Source: a virus. From it: 64,000 nt of DNA. Shown here piece by piece: positions 46,281-56,485 of this stretch (the stretch's first letter is position 1; every line of letters starts with the position of its first letter). The notes beneath the pieces were generated by a model. That model worked only from the letters and a program-made list of their open reading frames with translations, was not told the origin of the DNA and did not search any database. The stretch covers positions 32,001 through 96,000 of IMG/VR virus record IMGVR_UViG_3300043448_000837. One strand, 5' to 3'. The position numbers were made by a program, and so were the translations under genes.

Positions 46281-47372
46281 TCACAGGCCCAGCAAGGCGT
46301 CCAGCTGCTTGGGCTTCATTTTCCCCACGAATTCCATGAAGTTCGCGTACTTGCCGGCACGAATGCCGAACATTGCACCGGAAACATTCGGGTGGTTTTC
46401 GAGGACAATGCCCGCAAATTCCTTCTGGGAGTAACCTTCGTACAGTCGCACGAAGCCCTCAACCATGAACCCGATATCGCCGATACGATCGCGCAAAGCG
46501 TTGAACTCTGCGGAATAGTCGGGGAAGTGCAGCAGGAACTCGTCCAGATCGTCGTTCAGGTACAGCTCGGAGAAGTCAGGATCCCCGTTACCGCGAACGC
46601 GATGCAACTGAACGTAAACGTCGGACTTGACCTTGATTCGGTTACCGTTCGCGTCGCAAACGATGAAGCCTTCGTGGTCGGCACCGCGAGCGTTGACTGC
46701 GTCAACGATGTTGTCAGCACCGAAATTGAAGGACTCAGCCACCCAGAATACGCGGGAGAAATCACCCAGCGGCAACTCTACGAAATCGTTCGCACGATCC
46801 CGCACTGCCAGCAGCCGTAACATCGGCTCGTCGTACTTCACAACGATCCGGTTCTCGGCAGCGCACAACTCAAACACGTAGCAGTAATTCGGGTTCAGAT
46901 CGAAAGCGTTATAGCGCATGTACCGGAAGGTATCCCAGAACAGCTCTTCAAACGACATACCGGAATCACCAACGCTGCCAGCACCGCCGACAGAACCGGA
47001 GGTAGAAACAACCCACTGCACACCGTTCCAGAACAGTTTAATCAGCGAGCCATCATACTTCTCGTATACGTTCGCGGAGGACCAATCAATCTCATCAGCT
47101 TCAGCTTCGCCCAGGTTGAAGAAACGGTCGAAAGCGTAAGCAACCAGGCGAAAGTACGGCGAATGATCACCGTCGTTATCCACTCGCTCTACGACGGCAC
47201 CACGGCAAGCACGTACGATCGGGTTACCCTTGTCGGTACCAATTACTCCGTACTTCAGGTTGAACAAACCAGGGAAACGGTCGTCCGTAGAAACGCGGAT
47301 GTCCAGGTCCGCCAGGGGACCCAGCCCATAGTCGTTCAGCCAGTTGATCAGGTTGTTTCGCAAGTTATCCAT
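46281..47372 (-). CDS. RNA ligase, T4 Rnl1-like
   Basis: CRG, RFFN, EKYDGSL, FEL..ENRIVV, EGFIV, KVKS; single-gene cassette. Confidence 0.9.
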   Translation of the reverse strand: MDNLRNNLINWLNDYGLGPLADLDIRVSTDDRFPGLFNLKYGVIGTDKGNPIVRACRGAVVERVDNDGDHSPYFRLVAYAFDRFFNLGEAEADEIDWSSANVYEKYDGSLIKLFWNGVQWVVSTSGSVGGAGSVGDSGMSFEELFWDTFRYMRYNAFDLNPNYCYVFELCAAENRIVVKYDEPMLRLLAVRDRANDFVELPLGDFSRVFWVAESFNFGADNIVDAVNARGADHEGFIVCDANGNRIKVKSDVYVQLHRVRGNGDPDFSELYLNDDLDEFLLHFPDYSAEFNALRDRIGDIGFMVEGFVRLYEGYSQKEFAGIVLENHPNVSGAMFGIRAGKYANFMEFVGKMKPKQLDALLGL

Positions 47373-47934: not shown

Positions 47935-49431
47935 TCAGAAGGTGAACTTCGTTTGAATTACGCCACCAAAGTTAGACGAAGCGCCGGTGAACGCTTGGTT
48001 GTTGGTTACGTAGAAGACAGCGGGAGTGATCGAGATGTTGTCGCTCACACGGTACTTGTAGAAGGCTTCCCACATCAGAGCATCCTTGGAAAGACTTGCG
48101 GCATTTCCAGGTTGGCCGATAGCGAAACCAGCACCGTTGCCTTTCGCGAAGACGTCACTCCACTGAAGGCCAGCGTACCACGATTCAGCGTTGGTTGCAC
48201 CTGCAGGAGTGGTCTTGTTTTGAGCGGTCAGGCTCACAGTGTTCCAGCCGTAGCCAGCGCTCACAGAGGGCACGATTCCAGACTTGGAAGGTTGCCAGTA
48301 GGCGCTGATTGCGTAGCCGTTGGAAGTTTGACCGGGAGCAAGAACGCCAGAACCACCGTTCAGAGCGTTAAAAGTGCGAACCCGAGTTCCTTCCGTACCG
48401 TAGCGGTAACCGAACGCAACACCGTAATTAGAAGCACGGTAGCCAACTTGAGCCATCGTGTTCAGGGCGCCGGATTCGTTGAACTCACCCTTGGTGGAAT
48501 CGTTTCCATTCTGGGCAACGTAGTTCAGACCAGCCACGAAACCTTTCTTGCCGGGCTGCCTCCACTGGGCGCCGAAACCTGCACCGGTTGCCTTGTTGTA
48601 AACACCAGGCGCACCAGCAAGCTGGAAGAAGTCAAGGATTTCCGACTTGTACGCGGAAGGAATCCAGGCCATCTCCGTGTTACGAACCAGGGGGCCAGCG
48701 GTCAGGGTTAGACCCTTCGTGAAGGCGGGGAACTGGTAGTACAGGCGATCCAGTTTGACAGTGTCGGCGGTGCTTTCAGCCTTGTCCAGCTTGAACAGCG
48801 AGGAGCTTGATCCGAAAGGTTGAGCCGAGAAGTTACCGGAACGCAGGCGAGTGCGCAGCAGATCTTTGCCGGTGAACGACGTGTCGAAGTTCAGGCGAAG
48901 GTCGTAGTTGAAGGCGGTTTCCCCAACGTTCGTGCTGGGAGCGTTTTTGCCAACACCGGGAGTCTTGGCGCCATCAACTCCACCCAGAATGAAATTTGCT
49001 TCACCGCGAAGTTTGGTGGTGGTTGAGAACTGAGTTGCTTCCAGTTGACCAACCTTGGCTTCCAGCTTACTCACGCGACCGCGAATCACGGCCAGTTCAG
49101 CGGCGAACTCACGGGCAAGACGATTGAGTTCGTCCGTGACTTCAGTTACGCGATCCAGGCAGGCATTCAGCAGGGCGGCAGCTTCGTAACGGGTCATCGC
49201 TTGACCGCCACCGTAAGTTCCGTCCGGGTAACCTGCAACGCAACCGTAGTTTTCTACGAGTTTTTGCAGAGCACCGTACGCCCAGTCGGTAGGCTTGACG
49301 TCTGAGAATTGAGCAATGCTCGTCACTTGCTCGGAAGAGTATTGATTGACTGCGGCGATATTAAGATCAGCTGCAGATGCTACCAGCGGCGTCGTAACAA
49401 CAGCACCGGCAACAATAAAAGATTTGATCAT
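47935..49431 (-). CDS. Cyanobacterial SomA/SomB-type porin (SLH + OprB-like)
   Basis: Signal peptide; FSDVKPTDWAY..YGCVAGYPDG..TRYEAAA; QFSTTTKL; C-terminal FTF. Confidence 0.93.
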   Translation of the reverse strand: MIKSFIVAGAVVTTPLVASAADLNIAAVNQYSSEQVTSIAQFSDVKPTDWAYGALQKLVENYGCVAGYPDGTYGGGQAMTRYEAAALLNACLDRVTEVTDELNRLAREFAAELAVIRGRVSKLEAKVGQLEATQFSTTTKLRGEANFILGGVDGAKTPGVGKNAPSTNVGETAFNYDLRLNFDTSFTGKDLLRTRLRSGNFSAQPFGSSSSLFKLDKAESTADTVKLDRLYYQFPAFTKGLTLTAGPLVRNTEMAWIPSAYKSEILDFFQLAGAPGVYNKATGAGFGAQWRQPGKKGFVAGLNYVAQNGNDSTKGEFNESGALNTMAQVGYRASNYGVAFGYRYGTEGTRVRTFNALNGGSGVLAPGQTSNGYAISAYWQPSKSGIVPSVSAGYGWNTVSLTAQNKTTPAGATNAESWYAGLQWSDVFAKGNGAGFAIGQPGNAASLSKDALMWEAFYKYRVSDNISITPAVFYVTNNQAFTGASSNFGGVIQTKFTF

Positions 49432-49486: not shown

Positions 49487-49558
49487 AGCGGAATACCGGG
49501 ATCGAACCGGTGACATCTTGCTTGGAAGGCGAGCGTTCTACCGCTGAACTAATTCCGC
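49487..49558 (-). tRNA. tRNA-Gly(TCC)
   Basis: Loop CTTCCAA. Confidence 0.9.
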
Positions 49559-49938
49559 GAATTTCTGTAAGTTCGAGTGGACTTACCTTTGTTTAAATTC
49601 CTAAAGTTAGGTGTGAGCGAATGGCAGTTTGGACACAGCAACTCAAGGTTGGACGGGTTGTTGTTTGTAGCGTCCCCATCGATGTGATTGATTTCTAGGG
49701 GAACGTTTCTGGTGACAGGGTGAACTTCACCCCACCCGCACCTTGGGCAACGGTTGTTGGCCTGCTCAAGTAAGAACCTCCGAATGTGATTTGATTGCTT
49801 AACCTGTGAGCCCAGGGTTATCTCACCGGATAACCACTTACGGATGGCCTCTTGATACTGATAATCTATCTGACAGCGGTTGCTGCAGTATTTGTTAGTT
49901 TTTCGGCGGCAGGTTGCCCCGCAAGTTAAGCAAGTCAT
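49549..49938 (-). CDS. HNH endonuclease between two tRNA genes
   Basis: Start MTCLTCG; LEINHIDG..NN..NLELLCPNCH. Confidence 0.88.
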   Translation of the reverse strand: MTCLTCGATCRRKTNKYCSNRCQIDYQYQEAIRKWLSGEITLGSQVKQSNHIRRFLLEQANNRCPRCGWGEVHPVTRNVPLEINHIDGDATNNNPSNLELLCPNCHSLTPNFRNLNKGKSTRTYRNSRN

Positions 49939-49947
49939 AATTGAAGG

Positions 49948-50019
49948 AGCCCCCGACATGATTTGAACACGCGACATCCTCATTACAAGTGAGGCGCTCT
50001 ACCACTGAGCTACAAGGGC
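49948..50019 (-). tRNA. tRNA-Thr(TGT)
   Basis: Loop CTTGTAA. Confidence 0.9.
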
Positions 50020-50071
50020 AGAAGAAAAGGTGCTTTCGCACCTAGCATAGTCACAAGCGAAGTTCGTAAAC

Positions 50072-50440
50072 TTAGGCTCGCGAGTAACACACGTTAATGT
50101 GGCCACGGCCAGGATTTGCCAGCGCCTGGAAAGCAGCGTAGGAGAGATCAAGGTCTCGCCCAGCCACGAATGGGCCACGATCGTTGATTCGCACGACGAC
50201 CGAACGGCCCCCGTGAGTTACTCGAAGTCGGGTTCCGAACGGAAGATTACGGTGTGCCGCTGTCAAGGCATAGGTGTTAAACCGTTCTCCGCTCGCTGTA
50301 GTTTGACCGTGATAACCGTCACCTACTCCATAATAGCTGGCGCCAGAGCATGACGAAGCTAGAGAAGGCGATGGAGCCAGGAAAGTCATTCCGGCAACGG
50401 CGGCCAAACCAAACAAACCCTTCAGTTTCGAAACAAGCAT
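50072..50440 (-). CDS. rlpA: RlpA-like (DPBB) lytic transglycosylase
   Basis: [31 protein letters not shown]. Confidence 0.9.
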
Positions 50441-50612
50441 TTAATTAGATAGAAATCAACATCCACCTCGCAAAGTGTGGGTCCGTGTTTCAACGGCACT
50501 TGTGGGTGGCTCTAGGAGTTTAAGGAATGACTGCATTCCCGAGTTGCTCCCCGCAGTGTATCGTGGGGCCGACCTCATAAATCGGTGTTAAAAGCAACGC
50601 CGCTATTATAAC

Positions 50613-50640
50613 GGAAAAAAGGGAGGCGTAAACCTCCCCG
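50613..50640 (-). terminator. Intrinsic terminator after tmRNA
   Basis: GGGAGG-TTTACG-CCTCCC-TTTTTT. Confidence 0.85.
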
Positions 50641-50825
50641 TTCGCTCAGAGTGTGTTGCTCAAACGGCAACAGCAGTCCTGCGGAATGAAACGATGTTGT
50701 TGAGATTTATTCTCACTTCACCCTGCACGGTCGATAACCAGTTTACCCCCGTGAAGTGGAGGTAAGGCGATTCGAACGCCTGTGTCGCACAGAGCGCCCC
50801 AGTTTATAGTCTTGTGAGAGGACTG
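50641..50825 (-). ncRNA. ssrA: Circularly permuted (two-piece) tmRNA
   Basis: T-arm and 3' acceptor strand precede GGGGGTA 5' strand; G3-U70 pair; tag (A)LNNIVSFRRTAVAV* at 50660-50704; outer ends approximate. Confidence 0.88.
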
Positions 50826-50828
50826 ATT

Positions 50829-51329
50829 TCAGCGTAATTTTCTACCTTTACGGTAATTTTCTGGGATAGGGTCACCTACCCTTATCTTCAAGTTTTTCTC
50901 CCCATTGGTAACCCACATAGTGCCGAATTGAGAATTTCTCTCCCCTTGTTGGTGTTTCATTTCAGCAAGAGTTTTTCGTCTCTTAGCTTTAGCCTCAGGA
51001 GATAGGGCAGCTTTTACGGCTAGAAGTCTATTCTTGCGTAGATTATTTAGCTGGTTCGATCTGTATTCTTCGTCGTTTTTCCACAGGAACGAAGTTCTCT
51101 CCCACATCTTCTCTAAGCCGCCGCTATTTCGAGCAAGTTGGTTAATAATTTCTTCTTTTCCAATTTCTCCTACCAATCCCTTCCACGCAATAAAATCACG
51201 TTTGTCTCCCCATAGTTGCCAGTTGCAGTAATGAAACATTGCATGTTGAGTTACCGAGACCTCGACTAGGTTTGAAAGATCATCGGTTCCCCCTTTATAC
51301 TTCGGCAGAATGTGATGTTTGTGGGTCAT
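50829..51329 (-). CDS. HNH homing endonuclease
   Basis: HKHHILPKYKGG..NLV..HAMFH; NSQFGTMWVTNG. Confidence 0.85.
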   Translation of the reverse strand: MTHKHHILPKYKGGTDDLSNLVEVSVTQHAMFHYCNWQLWGDKRDFIAWKGLVGEIGKEEIINQLARNSGGLEKMWERTSFLWKNDEEYRSNQLNNLRKNRLLAVKAALSPEAKAKRRKTLAEMKHQQGERNSQFGTMWVTNGEKNLKIRVGDPIPENYRKGRKLR

Positions 51330-51412
51330 TGTAATCGGTAATCCGATTACTTTTACCCCAACGCTAGAATCGAACCTCTATTGAAACGGAGTTGTTACCA
51401 CCCGAAGGTAGA

Positions 51413-51484
51413 TTGGCGATACTGGACTTGAACCAGTGACTTCTTCCGTGTCAAGGAAGTACTCTACCTCTGAGTTAATCGCCC
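51413..51484 (-). tRNA. tRNA-Val(GAC)
   Basis: Loop TTGACAC. Confidence 0.88.
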
Positions 51485-51574
51485 TGGCGGAAGATACTGG
51501 ATTCGAACCAGTGGTGCCGTTACCGACACAACGGTTTAGCAAACCGTCGCCTTAAACCACTCGGCCAATCTTCC
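51485..51574 (-). tRNA. tRNA-Ser(GCT)
   Basis: Loop TTGCTAA, CCA encoded. Confidence 0.92.
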
Positions 51575-51578
51575 AAGG

Positions 51579-51652
51579 TGCCCCCTGTAGGATTCGAACC
51601 TACGACTTCCTGGTTCGAAGCCAGGCGCTCTACTCCACTGAGCTAAGAGGGC
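51579..51652 (-). tRNA. tRNA-Arg(TCG)
   Basis: Loop CTTCGAA. Confidence 0.9.
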
Positions 51653-51655
51653 GAA

Positions 51656-51729
51656 TGAGAGATGGTGGATTTGAACCACCGACCATAGGCATATGAGACC
51701 CGTACTCTGCCAGACTGAGCTAATCTCTC
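51656..51729 (-). tRNA. tRNA-Met or Ile2 (CAT)
   Basis: Loop CTCATAT. Confidence 0.82.
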
Positions 51730-51747
51730 AAATTCCCTTTCGGGAAA

Positions 51748-51828
51748 TGCCCCCAGTCGGACTTGAACCGACAAACCTTTCGGCGGCTGATTTTGAATCA
51801 GCTGTGTTTACCATTTCACCACAAGGGC
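51748..51828 (-). tRNA. tRNA-Leu(CAA)
   Basis: Loop TTCAAAA. Confidence 0.9.
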
Positions 51829-51832
51829 AAGG

Positions 51833-51905
51833 CACCCTCGGCAGGATTTGAACCTGCGACTAACCGCTTAGAAGGCGGATGCTCTAGCCACTGAGCTACG
51901 AGGGC
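51833..51905 (-). tRNA. tRNA-Arg(TCT)
   Basis: Loop CTTCTAA. Confidence 0.9.
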
Positions 51906-51908
51906 AAA

Positions 51909-51982
51909 CGCTCTCTGTAGGATTCGAACCTACGACCTTCTGATCCGTAGTCAGACGCTCTAATCCGCTGAGCTAAGAGAGC
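51909..51982 (-). tRNA. tRNA-Arg(ACG)
   Basis: Loop CTACGGA. Confidence 0.92.
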
Positions 51983-51983
51983 A

Positions 51984-52057
51984 TGGCACCGAAACAAGGA
52001 CTTGAACCTTGGATAACAGTTTTGGAGACTGTCGTGTTACCACTACACTATTTCGGT
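51984..52057 (-). tRNA. tRNA-Trp(CCA)
   Basis: Loop CTCCAAA, CCA encoded. Confidence 0.9.
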
Positions 52058-52077
52058 AAAGTTGCCCGTCAGGGCAA

Positions 52078-52151
52078 TGTCCGTGAGAGGACTCGAACCT
52101 CCAACAACTACCACCTCAAAGTAGCGCGTCTGCCAATTGCGCCACACGGAC
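52078..52151 (-). tRNA. tRNA-Leu(GAG) with short variable loop
   Basis: Loop TTGAGGT. Confidence 0.82.
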
Positions 52152-52153
52152 AT

Positions 52154-52228
52154 TGGTTCTGGAGCTAGGACTCGAACCCAGGAATGGCGGGACCAAAACC
52201 CGCTGCCTTACCACTTGGCTACTCCAGA
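52154..52228 (-). tRNA. tRNA-Gln(TTG)
   Basis: Loop TTTTGGT, CCA encoded. Confidence 0.9.
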
Positions 52229-52247
52229 TTACTTGGCACGAGGCCAA

Positions 52248-52319
52248 AGTTTCGGGTCGGAATCGAACCGACGCATGAAGGTTTTGCAGACCTTCGCCTT
52301 ACCACTTGGCTACCGAAAC
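52248..52319 (-). tRNA. tRNA-Cys(GCA)
   Basis: Loop CTGCAAA. Confidence 0.9.
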
Positions 52320-52321
52320 GG

Positions 52322-52394
52322 GGTGGTCGATGAGATTTGAACTCACATGAACCAGATCCACAATCTGGCGCATTAACCATTATGCTACGACCAC
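52322..52394 (-). tRNA. tRNA-His(GTG)
   Basis: Loop TTGTGGA. Confidence 0.9.
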
Positions 52395-52396
52395 AG

Positions 52397-52481
52397 CGGA
52401 GAGGGTGGGATTCGAACCCACGGAGGCTTTCACCTCGCTAGTTTTCAAGACTAGAGCCATCAACCACTCGACCACCTCTCC
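52397..52481 (-). tRNA. tRNA-Ser(TGA)
   Basis: Loop CTTGAAA. Confidence 0.92.
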
Positions 52482-52485
52482 AAGG

Positions 52486-52557
52486 AGCGGATGAAGGGAT
52501 TTGAACCCTCGACTTTCTCCTTGGCAAGGAGATGCTCTACCACTGAGCTACATCCGC
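52486..52557 (-). tRNA. tRNA-Gly(GCC)
   Basis: Loop TTGCCAA. Confidence 0.92.
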
Positions 52558-52577
52558 GAACGTTCCCGAAGGAACGA

Positions 52578-52650
52578 TGGAGAATAGGAGACTCGAACTC
52601 CTGACATCCTGCTTGCAAAGCAGGCGCTCTACCAGCTGAGCTAATTCCCC
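52578..52650 (-). tRNA. tRNA-Ala(TGC)
   Basis: Loop TTTGCAA, G3-U70. Confidence 0.93.
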
Positions 52651-52855
52651 GAGCAGGGCGAGAGTATCTGCCTACGATTAACGACTTGCGTAAAGATTAG
52701 AACTGAGTCACGCAACTTGGTCGCCTAACCCAGACTTTGCTTTGTCGCAGTACCGTTACTTTACGATGCAGCTTACGGGACTCTTCATTTAATGCAACAT
52801 TCCTCGTTGCACCCTCTTTGGCCTCCTTCCTGGCTATCTGCCAGACGAGTACCAA
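52651..52855 (-). ncRNA. ~200-nt structured RNA, manA RNA candidate
   Basis: Non-coding inter-tRNA segment with helices; resemblance to cyanophage manA RNA is from recall. Confidence 0.5.
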
Positions 52856-52927
52856 AGCCATCACTGAGGCTTGAACTCAGGACCTCCATCTTACCAAGAT
52901 GGCGCACTACCACTGTGCTATGACGGC
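52856..52927 (-). tRNA. tRNA-Thr(GGT)
   Basis: Loop TTGGTAA. Confidence 0.9.
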
Positions 52928-52931
52928 GAAG

Positions 52932-53013
52932 TGGGAAAGACTGGATTTGAACCAGTGTAGGCAGAGCCAAAGGTTTTACAGACCTCCTCCTTTAACCACT
53001 CGGACACTTTCCC
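52932..53013 (-). tRNA. tRNA-Tyr(GTA)
   Basis: Loop CTGTAAA. Confidence 0.92.
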
Positions 53014-53267
53014 AAAATCCCCTTGCGGGGGGATTTGACGGTCTCTGCAGAGTAGATTGTCAGTTCAATACCTTCAATCACCGTCGTCCGCCCAGTTACC
53101 AGCTGGGCGGTGTAGCATTCAGTAACCCATGAGAATGCCAGCGGGGACCACTCGTATCAGGTCATTAGCCTCCCTTTTGCCTCAGGAGCTCGGCGCACGG
53201 CATACTCTCCGTACTGGAGTCGCACTTTTTGGTCAAGGCAGCAAAACTCCTTGTTGCCCGAAGGCAA

Positions 53268-53341
<74 letters not shown>

Positions 53342-53344
53342 TGA

Positions 53345-54232
53345 TGGCCCCATTTAACACGTGAAACGCTTCAAGAACGCACAGAGGTGGGGGCTCGTGG
53401 CTTCCAGCAGGGCTCGCATATTGGCCGGTAAGAGTGTTTCATCCAGCAGCACCAACGGCAAGACAGCCCTCAAGGAAGCACCACACATTAACGACTGTAT
53501 GAGTGGCCGTGTCGGGAACTTAACGACGTATTCCATACGACTCCGGTGTCTAGAACGGAGGGGTTGGTAGGAGGGGCGGCCTCCTGAGTGCGTCACCGCC
53601 CGCTTTTGCGTCACCCAGCCAGTGACCGGGGAGAGGCATTGCACTTCCTACGTTTGCCGGTTTTCAACCGGCCCCTGGAATGAAATCCAGGATGCTTCGT
53701 TCTCCCTTGAGCGATCCGAAGAACGCGGGACGGTGATTGCAGACCGCAGCCCGATGCTATGCCCGGACATTTCCGGACCACGCAGAGCGGGAACGCGAAC
53801 CAGCGAACTGGCCGCACCACACCGACAGAGCAGTGTGGGTGGTTGGTGAGGCAGGTGTCTCTACGCTGTACTTCCACAAGTGTCTACGCTATACGTTACA
53901 CAAGTGTCACGAACAGTTCAACTCCTTTTGCTTTCCTTACCTCGGCAGGGTGCCGCTACCTCCCTTGTTGCGGCGTGTTTGTACGTTTCGTTCATCCAGG
54001 TACGTTACTAGACCTAGGACACTTTTTCTTTTCCCGCATCAAGTCGTCAGTGTCGTTAACGCTTGAGCATGGAATGGGAGTTCACCCATTCGTAACTTAT
54101 TTGGGAGCCTGAACTATGACTCTTACAGGCAGTTTGGCATTTTTCTCGCTCCCGGACTACGCAAACTGCCAAATGGCATCCGGGCACAAGCCTACTCCCC
54201 CCTCGTCTAGTAGGCATCGCATGGACGAGGGA
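53345..54232 (-). ncRNA. Large (~890 nt) structured non-coding RNA candidate
   Basis: No credible ORF; serial pseudoknots and hairpins; lies between tRNA-Asn and tRNA-Pro. Confidence 0.65.
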
Positions 54233-54233
54233 A

Positions 54234-54305
54234 CTGGCCCGGCAGGGATCGAACCTGCGACAACTTGATTAACAGTCAAGCGTTCTACCGCTGAACTACA
54301 GGCCA
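54234..54305 (-). tRNA. tRNA-Asn(GTT)
   Basis: Loop CTGTTAA. Confidence 0.92.
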
Positions 54306-54346
54306 TTGTGGGAGTGTCTTTAGGGCGCATCTCATTCCCAAAAGCG

Positions 54347-54488
54347 TACCGAGTGATGGAATCGAACTATCACCGTTCTTTCAGTGAGTTACCATCTCAC
54401 CTAGGTTTCCGCAGCATTCATCTGACGACTGGTTAAGTCAACAAATCAAATGCTCGTCCACCTGAACTACCTACCCTTAGAACTCGGC
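54347..54488 (-). ncRNA. tRNA-like RNA (acceptor + T arm, expanded core)
   Basis: GCCGAG/CTCGGT stem and TTCGATT T-loop enclosing ~110 nt. Confidence 0.55.
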
Positions 54489-54514
54489 TTATGCTGAAGT
54501 TTGCCTTACGGCAA

Positions 54515-54588
54515 TGGCGGAGGCAGGATTCGAACCTGCGACCTCCAGGTTATGAGCCTGGCGAGCTACCGGACTGCTCTACTCCACG
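54515..54588 (-). tRNA. Initiator tRNA-fMet(CAT)
   Basis: C1xC72 mismatch, A11-U24, loop CTCATAA. Confidence 0.88.
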
Positions 54589-54702
54589 ATTCAACCCCCA
54601 GTTGTAACAAGCGTTGCCAGCTGGACGCACTTGAAACCGGATTTTACAACGCTAATGGCCCCAGGGGCGGTGACCGGCGTTGTGCCCACCAAAATGGGCA
54701 AA

Positions 54703-54776
54703 TGGGAACTGACGGATTTGAACCATCGACACCACGGGCTTCAACCGTGTGCTCTACCAAGCTGAGCTAAGTCCCC
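54703..54776 (-). tRNA. tRNA-Phe(GAA)
   Basis: Loop TTGAAGC. Confidence 0.9.
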
Positions 54777-54780
54777 GAGG

Positions 54781-54852
54781 TGGAACCGACAAGACTTGAA
54801 CTTGTGACCGCTCGGTTATCAGCCGAGTGCTCTACCACTGAGCTACGGTTCC
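54781..54852 (-). tRNA. tRNA-Ile(GAT)
   Basis: Loop CTGATAA. Confidence 0.92.
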
Positions 54853-55027
54853 ATGATTGGGCGGGATTGCTGCTAACTGTTACTTTCACTGACGGAAAGA
54901 ACTCCCAGCAGTCCCTAACAGTTTTAGTCTTGTTTAGGACTCCCATGCGGGCAGCTCACTTTCGTATCACTCTTGCAGAACCAAGAGGTATCAGATGAGC
55001 GGTGCAGTTTTGTGTCATGCCGGACAA

Positions 55028-55099
55028 CGACCCTAACGGGATTTGAACCCGTGATACTACCGTGACAGGGTAGCGTGATCACCGCTTCACTATAGGGTC
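55028..55099 (-). tRNA. tRNA-Asp(GTC)
   Basis: Loop CTGTCAC. Confidence 0.92.
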
Positions 55100-55121
55100 A
55101 AGACGAGGTTTGTAACCTCTA

Positions 55122-55193
55122 TGGGTCGTCTGAGATTCGAACTCAGGGCCAATCGGTTAAAAGCCGAGTGCTCTACCGCTGAGCTAACGACCC
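55122..55193 (-). tRNA. tRNA-Lys(TTT)
   Basis: Loop CTTTTAA. Confidence 0.92.
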
Positions 55194-55594
55194 GTGGATC
55201 TCTGGCTGGGATGGTACCGCCGTCATTAACCTCCTACCCAGAGGTTACCAGAGATGTTGTTCGCTTTCGTGGGCCTGAGAACGGATTGGTTACCGCCAGG
55301 TGTACCTTTCTCGTGCGGCGCTGAAACGGATTGGTTACCGCCAACTTACCGCCTCTTGTCTTTCCGAAGGAAAGTATCAGGCGAATGGACTCTTGGCTGG
55401 GGCGATGCGTCCGTCATTAACCAGCTGTTCACTGATTACCAAGAGGCGGGCGTCCCTAGTCCCCGCGATTTGCCAGAACTGATGAAGTGGCCGGAGACCG
55501 AAGTCATAACCCACCTCTCGTTTCGAGTGCGTTTTAGCTCTTAAACTACGCTACTGAAGTAGCGGTGGGTCTGACACCACACGTTTCACTCTAA

Positions 55595-55666
55595 TAGTCC
55601 CAACGGGATTCGAACCCGTGCTACAACCTTGAAAGGGTTGTGACCTAACCGCTAGTCGATAGGACC
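55595..55666 (-). tRNA. tRNA-Glu(TTC)
   Basis: Loop CTTTCAA. Confidence 0.92.
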
Positions 55667-55755
55667 ATTTGAAAACCTTTGGCTCAGTTCATGCCGTGCG
55701 ATTTACCCTGGACCGCATATCCAGGCACCAAAGGTTTTTGGTAATTTCTATTGAG

Positions 55756-55767
55756 TTTTCAAGTTTC
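55756..55767 (-). promoter_or_regulatory. boxA-like antitermination site (variant)
   Basis: GAAACTTGAAAA about 40 nt downstream of the promoter. Confidence 0.6.
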
Positions 55768-55806
55768 GTGTGACCTTGGAGAAGAACCTCTTTCAACCAC
55801 CCTTTT

Positions 55807-55872
55807 ATCATAGCGCCTTTTGCGCCAGAAGTAAAGGGGTGGAAACCGCCCAGAGAGGGCGGGAAACCGTCC
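55807..55872 (-). repeat. Cassette/promoter repeat copy 20 (tRNA operon promoter)
   Basis: TTTACT-N17-TATGAT. Confidence 0.85.
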
Positions 55873-55929
55873 TAGTGACTGAAGCGTCGGCAGCGCCGAC
55901 CTGGTCACGCACGGAGGTGGGTTTTTCAC

Positions 55930-55958
55930 TTTTCAAGGTTCGGGGCGAGGCTTTCCTC
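55930..55958 (-). promoter_or_regulatory. boxB-like hairpin + boxA
   Basis: GAGG-AAAG-CCTC then GAACCTTGAAAA. Confidence 0.7.
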
Positions 55959-55970
55959 AACCACCCTTTA

Positions 55971-56036
55971 ACTATAGCGCCTTTTGCGCCAGAAGTAAAG
56001 GGGTGGAAACCGTACCGAGGGTACGGGAAACCGCCC
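55971..56036 (-). repeat. Cassette/promoter repeat copy 21
   Basis: TTTACT-N17-TATAGT. Confidence 0.85.
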
Positions 56037-56038
56037 TA

Positions 56039-56119
56039 TGCCCTCCGGGAGACTCGAACTCCCACGCACAAGGCACTGGTACCTAAAACCAGGGCGTCTA
56101 CCAATTCCGCCAGGAGGGC
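56039..56119 (-). tRNA. tRNA-Leu(TAG)
   Basis: Loop TTTAGGT. Confidence 0.92.
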
Positions 56120-56133
56120 AAATAAGACTGGAA

Positions 56134-56219
56134 TGGAATGAACGGGAATCGAACCCGTCACTGAAGAGTTCCTTCTGGAGGTTTTTCTCTCCGAGCACCG
56201 CCGAGGCACCCCACGTTCC
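56134..56219 (-). ncRNA. Atypical tRNA-like RNA
   Basis: Perfect T-arm, 7-bp D-like stem, A-rich 8-nt loop in anticodon position. Confidence 0.55.
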
Positions 56220-56230
56220 AGTCTATCGAA

Positions 56231-56259
56231 TTTTCAAGGTTCGGGGCGAGGCTTTCCTC
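56231..56259 (-). promoter_or_regulatory. boxB-like hairpin + boxA
   Basis: Identical to 55930-55958. Confidence 0.7.
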
Positions 56260-56271
56260 AACCACCCTTTA

Positions 56272-56334
56272 ACTATAGCGCCTTTTGCGCCAGAAGTAAA
56301 GGGGTGGAAACCGCCCAGAGAGGGCGGTAACCCG
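56272..56334 (-). repeat. Cassette/promoter repeat copy 22
   Basis: TTTACT-N17-TATAGT. Confidence 0.85.
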
Positions 56335-56420
56335 GTGGTTGTGTCCGGGTCCACACAAGAGAATCCCCGGACCGGTGACCCGCCAGCCGTAAAGCCGACG
56401 GAGCACCCAACCACCCTTTA

Positions 56421-56485
56421 ACTATAACCCGTTTAGGGGCTCGAGTAAAGGGGGCAAACCGGCCTTTTCAGGCGGTTAACCGCCC
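56421..56485 (-). repeat. Cassette/promoter repeat copy 23
   Basis: GGGCGGTTAACCG..TTTACT-N17-TATAGT. Confidence 0.85.

Follow-up and report, generated by a model that had tools for sequence, protein, structure and literature searches.

Non-tRNA RNAs of phage tRNA clusters have been known since T4 RNAC and RNAD, and GOLLD and ROOL have made it clear that such RNAs can form striking assemblies. Consecutive H-type pseudoknots beside a tRNA-like structure also make up the upstream pseudoknot domain (UPD) of the tobamovirus 3' UTR. T4 RNAC and RNAD (species 1 and 2) are small non-tRNA RNAs, of unknown roles, from the tRNA region of the phage (PMC3014915), and both have been validated by northern analysis (PMC9697503). 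In GOLLD the 3' region is conserved and the 5' region variable, the linker at times contains tRNAs, and the RNA lies near phage tRNA islands (PMC12286853), and the theta ribozymes are minimal HDV-like ribozymes located at the 3' ends of phage tRNAs, mostly in gut phages (PMC10879173).

The locus analysed here is an 892-nt spacer at positions 53342-54233 of the window (the whole 64,000-nt stretch of viral DNA that was studied), on the minus strand, running from tRNA-Asn (54234-54305) to tRNA-Pro (53268-53341); in RNA coordinates, q1 is window position 54233. It resembles T4 RNAC and RNAD in its position within a tRNA cluster, in the size of its cassettes and in its probable co-transcription with the tRNAs, but it shows no sequence similarity to them by blastn, and here many consecutive pseudoknot-based cassettes are exchanged between phages. 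Like GOLLD and ROOL, it is encoded by a phage close to tRNA islands, occurs in lake metagenomes and is rich in pseudoknots. The likeness to GOLLD is one of layout only, the 3' 221 nt being 99% conserved and widespread and the 5' part a mosaic, always inside tRNA arrays; however, its conserved unit comprises ~220 nt, as against the 416 and 574 model positions of GOLLD and ROOL, respectively, and its parts, unlike those of GOLLD and ROOL, occur independently of one another. The likeness to the tobamovirus domain is in form only; that UTR belongs to a eukaryotic RNA virus and acts in translation and replication, and the Rfam UPD families gave no match to the spacer.

Searches with Rfam of the window region and three homologous loci, at both gathering and permissive (E≤10) thresholds, rendered tRNAs only. 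The GOLLD model RF02032 had no hit at E≤10 over the full length of the 114-kb source record, and a permissive cmscan of 52900-54700 was also empty; the ROOL model RF03087 likewise had no match at E≤10 in the record, a result that is weak alone, since the control genomes were also blank, and cmscan was negative as well. No standard or permuted tmRNA was found by ARAGORN, and Rfam gave no tmRNA or RNase P RNA match. The suggestion, made in an earlier note on this DNA, that the RNA might be GOLLD-like was therefore not borne out. That note had also regarded the lack of an Rfam hit, together with covariation, as support for novelty: no family matched, and the covariation described below is clear.

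A non-coding spacer in a cyanophage tRNA operon

The source contig is a 114-kb IMG/VR viral record, about 51% complete. Its gamma-type DNA polymerase is 57% identical to the counterpart in Synechococcus phage S-CBWM1, and the interior of its tRNA array holds a cyanobacterial SLH/OprB porin gene, which together identify it as an uncultured freshwater cyanophage; the phage, a myovirus, is of the S-CBWM1 lineage and no relative of T4. The minus strand carries 32 tRNA genes, 29 of them within 49487-56120. Other features of the array and its surroundings are the following.

55807-56449, minus strand: four sigma-70-like sites (TTTACT, 17 nt, TATAGT or TATGAT), inside 80-100-nt repeat units
53014-53267, 54306-54513, 55194-55593 and 55668-56037: further long tRNA-free gaps of the array, in which models R1-R3 found no copies
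50829-51329 and 49549-49983, minus strand: two HNH homing-endonuclease-like ORFs, scattered among the tRNAs
50072-50440, minus strand: DPBB lytic transglycosylase ORF, among the array tRNAs
47935-49431, minus strand: porin ORF of 498 aa with SLH and OprB domains, in the tRNA array, conserved in about 180 related viral contigs
46281-47372, minus strand: T4 Rnl1-type RNA ligase, immediately downstream of the tRNA array

The four repeated promoter-like sites are located upstream of the tRNA array, from 56449 to 55807 on the minus strand, and minus-strand terminator-like sites first appear at about 50620; neither promoter-like nor terminator-like sites were found within 53342-54233. This arrangement places the spacer in one predicted transcription unit, on the same strand as the tRNAs and downstream of four tandem promoter-like sites. 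The promoter-bearing repeat units recur in two related loci, L004 and L047 (related contigs are designated here by L numbers). The porin is a predicted auxiliary gene pointing to a cyanobacterial host. T4 Rnl1 mends tRNA cleaved by a host anticodon nuclease, and by analogy the phage appears to be invested in tRNA protection. Since models R1-R3 have no copies in the other four long gaps, those gaps contain different elements. The HNH ORFs and the lytic transglycosylase ORF may be drivers of cassette and tRNA shuffling.

The spacer is non-coding and has no conserved ORF, as the earlier note had stated. The longest ORFs comprise 117 aa (plus strand) and 96 aa (minus strand), and no spacer ORF has a Pfam match at E≤0.1 other than one of 109 aa, whose hit to BRCA2_TR2 (E 0.027, 14.9 bits) is far below the cutoff of 27. 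In close relatives the ORFs are disrupted by indels of 1, 1 and 2 nt, a 126-nt deletion and block replacements. The folding energy of the entire spacer is modest, with MFE z-scores of -2.25 for the minus strand and -1.31 for the plus strand. G.U pairs are common when the helices are read on the tRNA strand, where the opposite strand would have C.A mismatches, and these, together with a hairpin tip that is a UUCG tetraloop in one relative, fix both the molecule as RNA and the strand. That a structured non-coding RNA is encoded here, another proposal of the earlier note, and that it lies on the tRNA strand, is supported by the covarying helices and the G.U pairs. Relatives are present in RNA libraries, and we regard a structured RNA under selection as highly probable.

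Cassettes of the spacer and their helices

When the neighbouring porin gene was used as bait, 80 related loci were retrieved, only three of which contain the spacer, and motif scans of viral and metagenome contigs rendered about 25 extra contigs. The cassettes turn up in some 30 contigs of uncultured freshwater phages. A blastn search of 53200-54400 against 50,697 GenBank phage records gave tRNA matches only; matches in S-B43 and RB11-B were rejected, as they consisted of unrelated tRNAs separated by ORFs. In two scans, the core motifs of cassettes M5 and M1a had no match among 185,579 species genomes, and nine of 21 viral hits to a 16-mer were discarded as chance matches in coding DNA. In S-CBWM1, models R1 and R2 found a noise hit only (E 0.33).

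Because a MAFFT alignment mixed two hairpin types, the RNAalifold consensus from it was poor, and hand-drawn structures and model-based realignment were used instead. MAFFT also misregistered helix S1 of L127 and L134, which was corrected with model R1, and the pair counts for helices S1 and Hb of M1a and for the two helices of M6 come from model-fitted alignments. The covariation sets comprise 16-19 distinct sequences per cassette, which are few and closely related. The covariation scores of M1a, the M5 core and M6 were each reached by none of 500 shuffles, and slid controls were 30-55% paired. From the 5' end of the RNA, the spacer contains the following elements, all on the minus strand.

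54124-54233 (q1-110), minus strand: M1a, a double pseudoknot (model R1, pair count)
54224-54231/54200-54207 crossing 54209-54215/54190-54196, minus strand: PK1 (8 bp + 7 bp)
54180-54184/54151-54155 crossing 54162-54170/54128-54136, minus strand: PK2 (5 bp + 9 bp)
54072-54091, minus strand: perfect 7-bp hairpin GAATGGG/CCCATTC, invariant in six close variants
54018-54066, minus strand: PK3 (5+6 bp), present, at chance level and unsupported
53996-54017, minus strand: 6-bp hairpin with a 10-nt loop, in compensated versions
53947-53974, minus strand: PK4 (5+4 bp), invariant, at chance level
53922-53942, minus strand: purine-rich 21-nt motif GGTAAGGAAAGCAAAAGGAG, found alone after tRNAs or M6 in L086, L097 and L108
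53796-53921, minus strand: variable block M2, with a 24-nt tandem duplication at 53860-53908
53748-53795, minus strand: M3a
53689-53747, minus strand: M3b
53564-53688, minus strand: M4, two hairpins and a domain closed by GUAGGA/UCCUAC
53399-53563, minus strand: M5 (alignments A1 and A2, 17 distinct sequences)
53556-53560/53541-53545, minus strand: M5 P1, with the invariant loop UUCUAGA
53531-53534/53515-53518, minus strand: invariant M5 hairpin, GGAA (12 nt) UUCC
53511-53514/53492-53495 crossing 53500-53506/53481-53487, minus strand: M5 H-type pseudoknot, newly found
53474-53479/53400-53405, minus strand: outer helix of the long M5 hairpin P4
53342-53396, minus strand: M6, a 55-nt module that ends 4 nt upstream of tRNA-Pro
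53390-53394/53347-53351 (outer) and 53376-53379/53367-53370 (inner hairpin), minus strand: M6 helices

The four pairs of interleaved helices reported in the earlier note are all present where it had placed them. The first two, PK1 and PK2, exceed chance and covary: one pseudoknot with stems of ≥7/≥7 bp (the PK1 class) was observed as against 0.04 in shuffles, and three with stems of ≥5/≥9 bp (the PK2 class) as against 0.07. Model R1, a covariance model built from six near-identical M1a copies, recovers the divergent copies of L097, L127 and L134. Over the four helices of PK1 and PK2, 97% of the cells are paired and 15 of the 29 pairs have changed on both sides, a score found in 0/500 shuffles, with slid controls 30-53% paired; the two of these helices left unmodelled in the fit covary too, one pair showing four Watson-Crick types. 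This comparison shows both helices of each to be kept by compensatory change, as predicted for H-type pseudoknots. A PK2-type pseudoknot also occurs as a free-standing motif of ~55 nt (L126:501-583, L126:968-1021 and L047:6369-6502), with the pattern CCNGG ... GGUUU ... CCNGG ... A-rich ... AAACC, and is spread wider than M1a. Two T-arm-like motifs (GGTTCGATTCC) lie in the spacer of L084 (880-1295), which also has a further PK2-type copy, a divergent one, at 1129-1228 (E 2.5e-4); they may represent tRNA-like fragments in the cassette chain, uncalled by ARAGORN.

The third and fourth of the proposed pseudoknots, on the other hand, remain at chance level, the 5+6 and 5+4 classes being frequent by chance in shuffles. 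The second helix of PK3 has a C.A mismatch in three variants (L005, L084 and L088), and the geometry of PK4 leaves 1 nt only to span a 5-bp stem; at 53947-53974 a plain GCCGC/GCGGC hairpin is more likely than a pseudoknot. The hairpin at 53996-54017, lying between PK3 and PK4, exists in three compensated versions (CTAGGT/ACCTGG, CCAGGT/ACCTGG and CTGGGT/ACCCAG). Block M2 is poorly conserved among relatives, being swapped for an unrelated 91 nt in L004, L005 and L084, and the tandem duplication of ~24 nt noticed earlier within it is real (period 24, 2.1 copies). M3a and M3b are parted by other cassettes in L087, L108 and L127, and it is in L108 that the M3a hairpin is shortened to a UUCG tetraloop. 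M4 is missing in the closest relatives and present again in L127 and L097, as detected by blastn, and its closing motif was spotted by eye in L113 and L106.

As judged from the alignments, the 3' ~220 nt (53342-53563, M5-M6) is the best conserved unit, and M5 its best conserved part. Most sequences have the same 48-nt core in M5, and most of its positions are invariant over all 17. In the pair count over these 17 sequences, 94% of the cells are paired and seven pairs have changed on both sides (0/500 shuffles). The putative H-type pseudoknot of M5, which was absent from the earlier list, is shown by these changes to be kept by compensation, one of its pairs being AU in eight sequences, CG in six and UA in two, and never broken. 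Hairpin P4 exists in two alternative, unrelated versions, each internally compensated. The invariant P1 loop contains the palindrome UCUAGA. Pairing of the M5 loops with the rest of the operon transcript was considered and rejected, as 11 matches of 8-9 nt were found where about 19 are expected by chance. All 18 metagenome hits to M5 lie in tRNA arrays, in Asn-Pro, Met-Pro, Cys-Arg, Lys-Arg and Asp-Pro contexts.

Model R3 gave 21 matches to M6, several of them without M5; in these cases M6 is located upstream of tRNA-Pro, of tRNA-His (2 nt before) or of tRNA-Ile (about 84 nt before). In the M6 pair count 99% of the cells are paired and three of the four inner pairs have changed on both sides (0/500 shuffles), and in one pair U.G is the commonest state (11 of 19 sequences). 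In L097 and L116 a hairpin is inserted in the outer helix, which in L126 takes a GCCCAA/UUGGGC version. Two other identities for M6 were rejected: a sigma-70 promoter (TTGA.., TTAAAT), by inspection, for its spacing of 11-12 nt, and a permuted tmRNA or tRNA (GCCCCC-ACC ... GGGGC), since it has neither a T-arm nor a coding piece and gives no signal with ARAGORN or Rfam. Right behind M6 in L126 (1236-1880) there is a tRNA-like 5' half, with acceptor and D-arm, and the called tRNA-Pro follows ~560 nt further; this half may represent a tRNA that is split, interrupted or decayed, and intron models gave no match to it. Taken together, the comparison shows at least three cassettes (M1a, M5 and M6) with compensated helices, including three predicted H-type pseudoknots.

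Exchange among phages and presence in RNA libraries

The earlier note had treated the spacer as a single RNA of ~890 nt, which does not agree with its relatives. Their Asn-Pro spacers range from 383 to 953 nt and contain subsets of the same blocks in other orders, and single cassettes occupy other tRNA gaps; in L097, a tRNA-Lys lies between the 5' cassettes (M1a, M2b and M4) and M5-M6. Even the closest loci differ block by block: in L004 and L005, q1-312 and q439-545 are about 95% identical to the window and q672-892 is 99% identical, whereas q313-438 has given way to an unrelated 91 nt and q546-671 is missing. The spacer is thus quite probably a mosaic composed of eight or more cassettes, each separately exchangeable, and not one giant conserved RNA.

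The cassettes are far more conserved than the adjacent genes, and their loops are invariant over lineages whose genes are 74-85% identical. Between L005 and the window the porin DNA is 78% identical, the Asn-spacer-Pro block about 95% and the last 221 nt 99%, and in L005 these 221 nt adjoin a different tRNA-Pro allele, elsewhere in the array. The cassettes are absent from L047 (74% identical), from low-GC relatives and from S-CBWM1, which, together with the transfer pattern of L005, indicates that they are accessory and swapped as units. Part of the extreme conservation may come from recent transfer instead of constraint.

About a quarter of the sequence words were present in six lake metatranscriptome runs, and the M1, M3, M5 and M6 cassettes of sister variants are represented by unitigs that come from four studies and reach a depth of 137, although these runs are assembled contigs that may include DNA and show presence in RNA libraries and not ends, strand or stability. 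One unitig of 604 nt, of an L004-type variant, spans M1 to M5. The uncovered stretches 53000-53215 and 54350-54511 and the unitig ends, several of which fall at strain polymorphisms, were not used as evidence.

Processing, possible roles and alternative explanations

We favour, with a rough probability of 0.6, the reading that the spacer is a string of autonomously folding RNA cassettes of ~20-165 nt in a polycistronic tRNA operon, which constitute accessory stable RNAs. Release of the RNA by tRNA processing, as the earlier note had supposed, is a sound deduction from the established tRNA maturation pathway: the operon transcript would be cut by RNase Z after the discriminator of tRNA-Asn and by RNase P at position +1 of tRNA-Pro, and the 3' end of the freed RNA would be the M6 helix with a 4-nt overhang. 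The freed RNA, intact or further cut, could then act in trans as a stable structured RNA, its invariant single-stranded loops (UUCUAGA, ACGUCGUUAAG) possibly binding a protein or another RNA. Such a trans-acting accessory role, suggested by the invariant loops and by a distribution that is patchy and mobile, is put forward tentatively, at somewhat under even odds. A distribution of this kind would mark the function as accessory and not core, comparable to that of T4 RNAC and RNAD or, among larger RNAs, of GOLLD and ROOL.

The main rival, above all for M6, is a role in cis in processing or stability, in which the cassettes would serve as folding insulators, nuclease barriers or processing guides of the tRNA transcript and have no role once excised. 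Pseudoknots are recognised exonuclease barriers. M6 is usually just upstream of a tRNA, 2-7 nt from its 5' end at most loci, which fits a role in cis at least as well, and M1a starts 0-2 nt past the tRNA 3' end in three contexts (tRNA-Asn, tRNA-Gly and tRNA-Asp); in L134 it begins at the first base past tRNA-Asp, and in L127 M1a by itself exactly occupies the 112-nt Gly-Ser gap. However, most array tRNAs are 0-20 nt apart without any such element, and close relatives and the nearest cultured phage are entirely without cassettes. The 5' side of M5 never adjoins a tRNA, the M1a copy of L097 lies behind a leader and not a tRNA, and no tRNA follows M6 in L123 and L086. On this balance a purely cis-acting function is rather unlikely.

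A single GOLLD-like RNA of ~0.9 kb, its 3' domain conserved and its 5' half variable, folding and acting as one molecule that might form oligomers, would have a layout like that published for GOLLD (PMC12286853) and could account for the T-arm-like motifs in the middle of the L084 spacer; the palindromic UCUAGA of the P1 loop is a potential kissing contact, and the 604-nt unitig, spanning several cassettes, is compatible with a long multi-domain molecule too. It is nonetheless improbable, as the GOLLD and ROOL models are silent, no covarying long-range helix joins the two halves, the 3' unit is found without M1 and M1a without the 3' unit, a tRNA separates the halves in L097, and the order of the cassettes varies among relatives. 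Also improbable is the idea that M5-M6, with or without variable 5' cassettes, might represent a novel class of ornate phage RNA, self-associating through its invariant palindromic loop and targeting, in trans, host translation, tRNA metabolism or an anti-phage nuclease; if so, the chain of cassettes would serve as a multivalent RNA for counter-defence or takeover, swapped among phages.

That M1a might be a new self-cleaving ribozyme making the tRNA 3' end is suggested by its likeness to the HDV-like theta ribozymes, located at phage tRNA 3' ends (PMC10879173): it is knotted, its 5' stem starts right past the tRNA and is sequence-free but always paired, as is P1 of HDV-like ribozymes, and the tRNA-Asn gene has no encoded CCA. 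It is, however, very improbable, given that PK1 lacks a P3/L3 hairpin, with a single nt separating the second 5' strand from the first 3' strand, as well as P1.1, P4 and the catalytic cytosine, the J4/2 position reading GGG; moreover, the Rfam ribozyme families, including the HDV type, have no match, and the L097 copy of M1a does not follow a tRNA. Least probable of all is non-functional filler, be it genes in decay, leftovers of mobile DNA or a neutral spacer that the homing endonucleases of the array have reshuffled, to which the mosaic structure, the indels, the tandem duplication, the two HNH ORFs and the poor conservation of M2 would point, but interleaved helices kept by compensatory changes are meaningless for DNA, loops invariant over divergent lineages and a hairpin tip swapped for a UUCG tetraloop also speak against it, and the covariation argues against it for M1a, M5 and M6, though not for M2 or PK3/PK4.

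With accessory RNA cassettes as the favoured reading, the locus adds at least three covariation-supported candidate RNA families without an Rfam match, including three pseudoknots, and points to a new organisational rule, by which small folded RNA cassettes are exchangeable gene-like units in the tRNA operons of freshwater cyanophages. The short, defined cassettes (110, 165 and 55 nt) are handy for structure determination, processing assays and pull-downs, and could make the function of the RNAs of phage tRNA clusters open to experiment.
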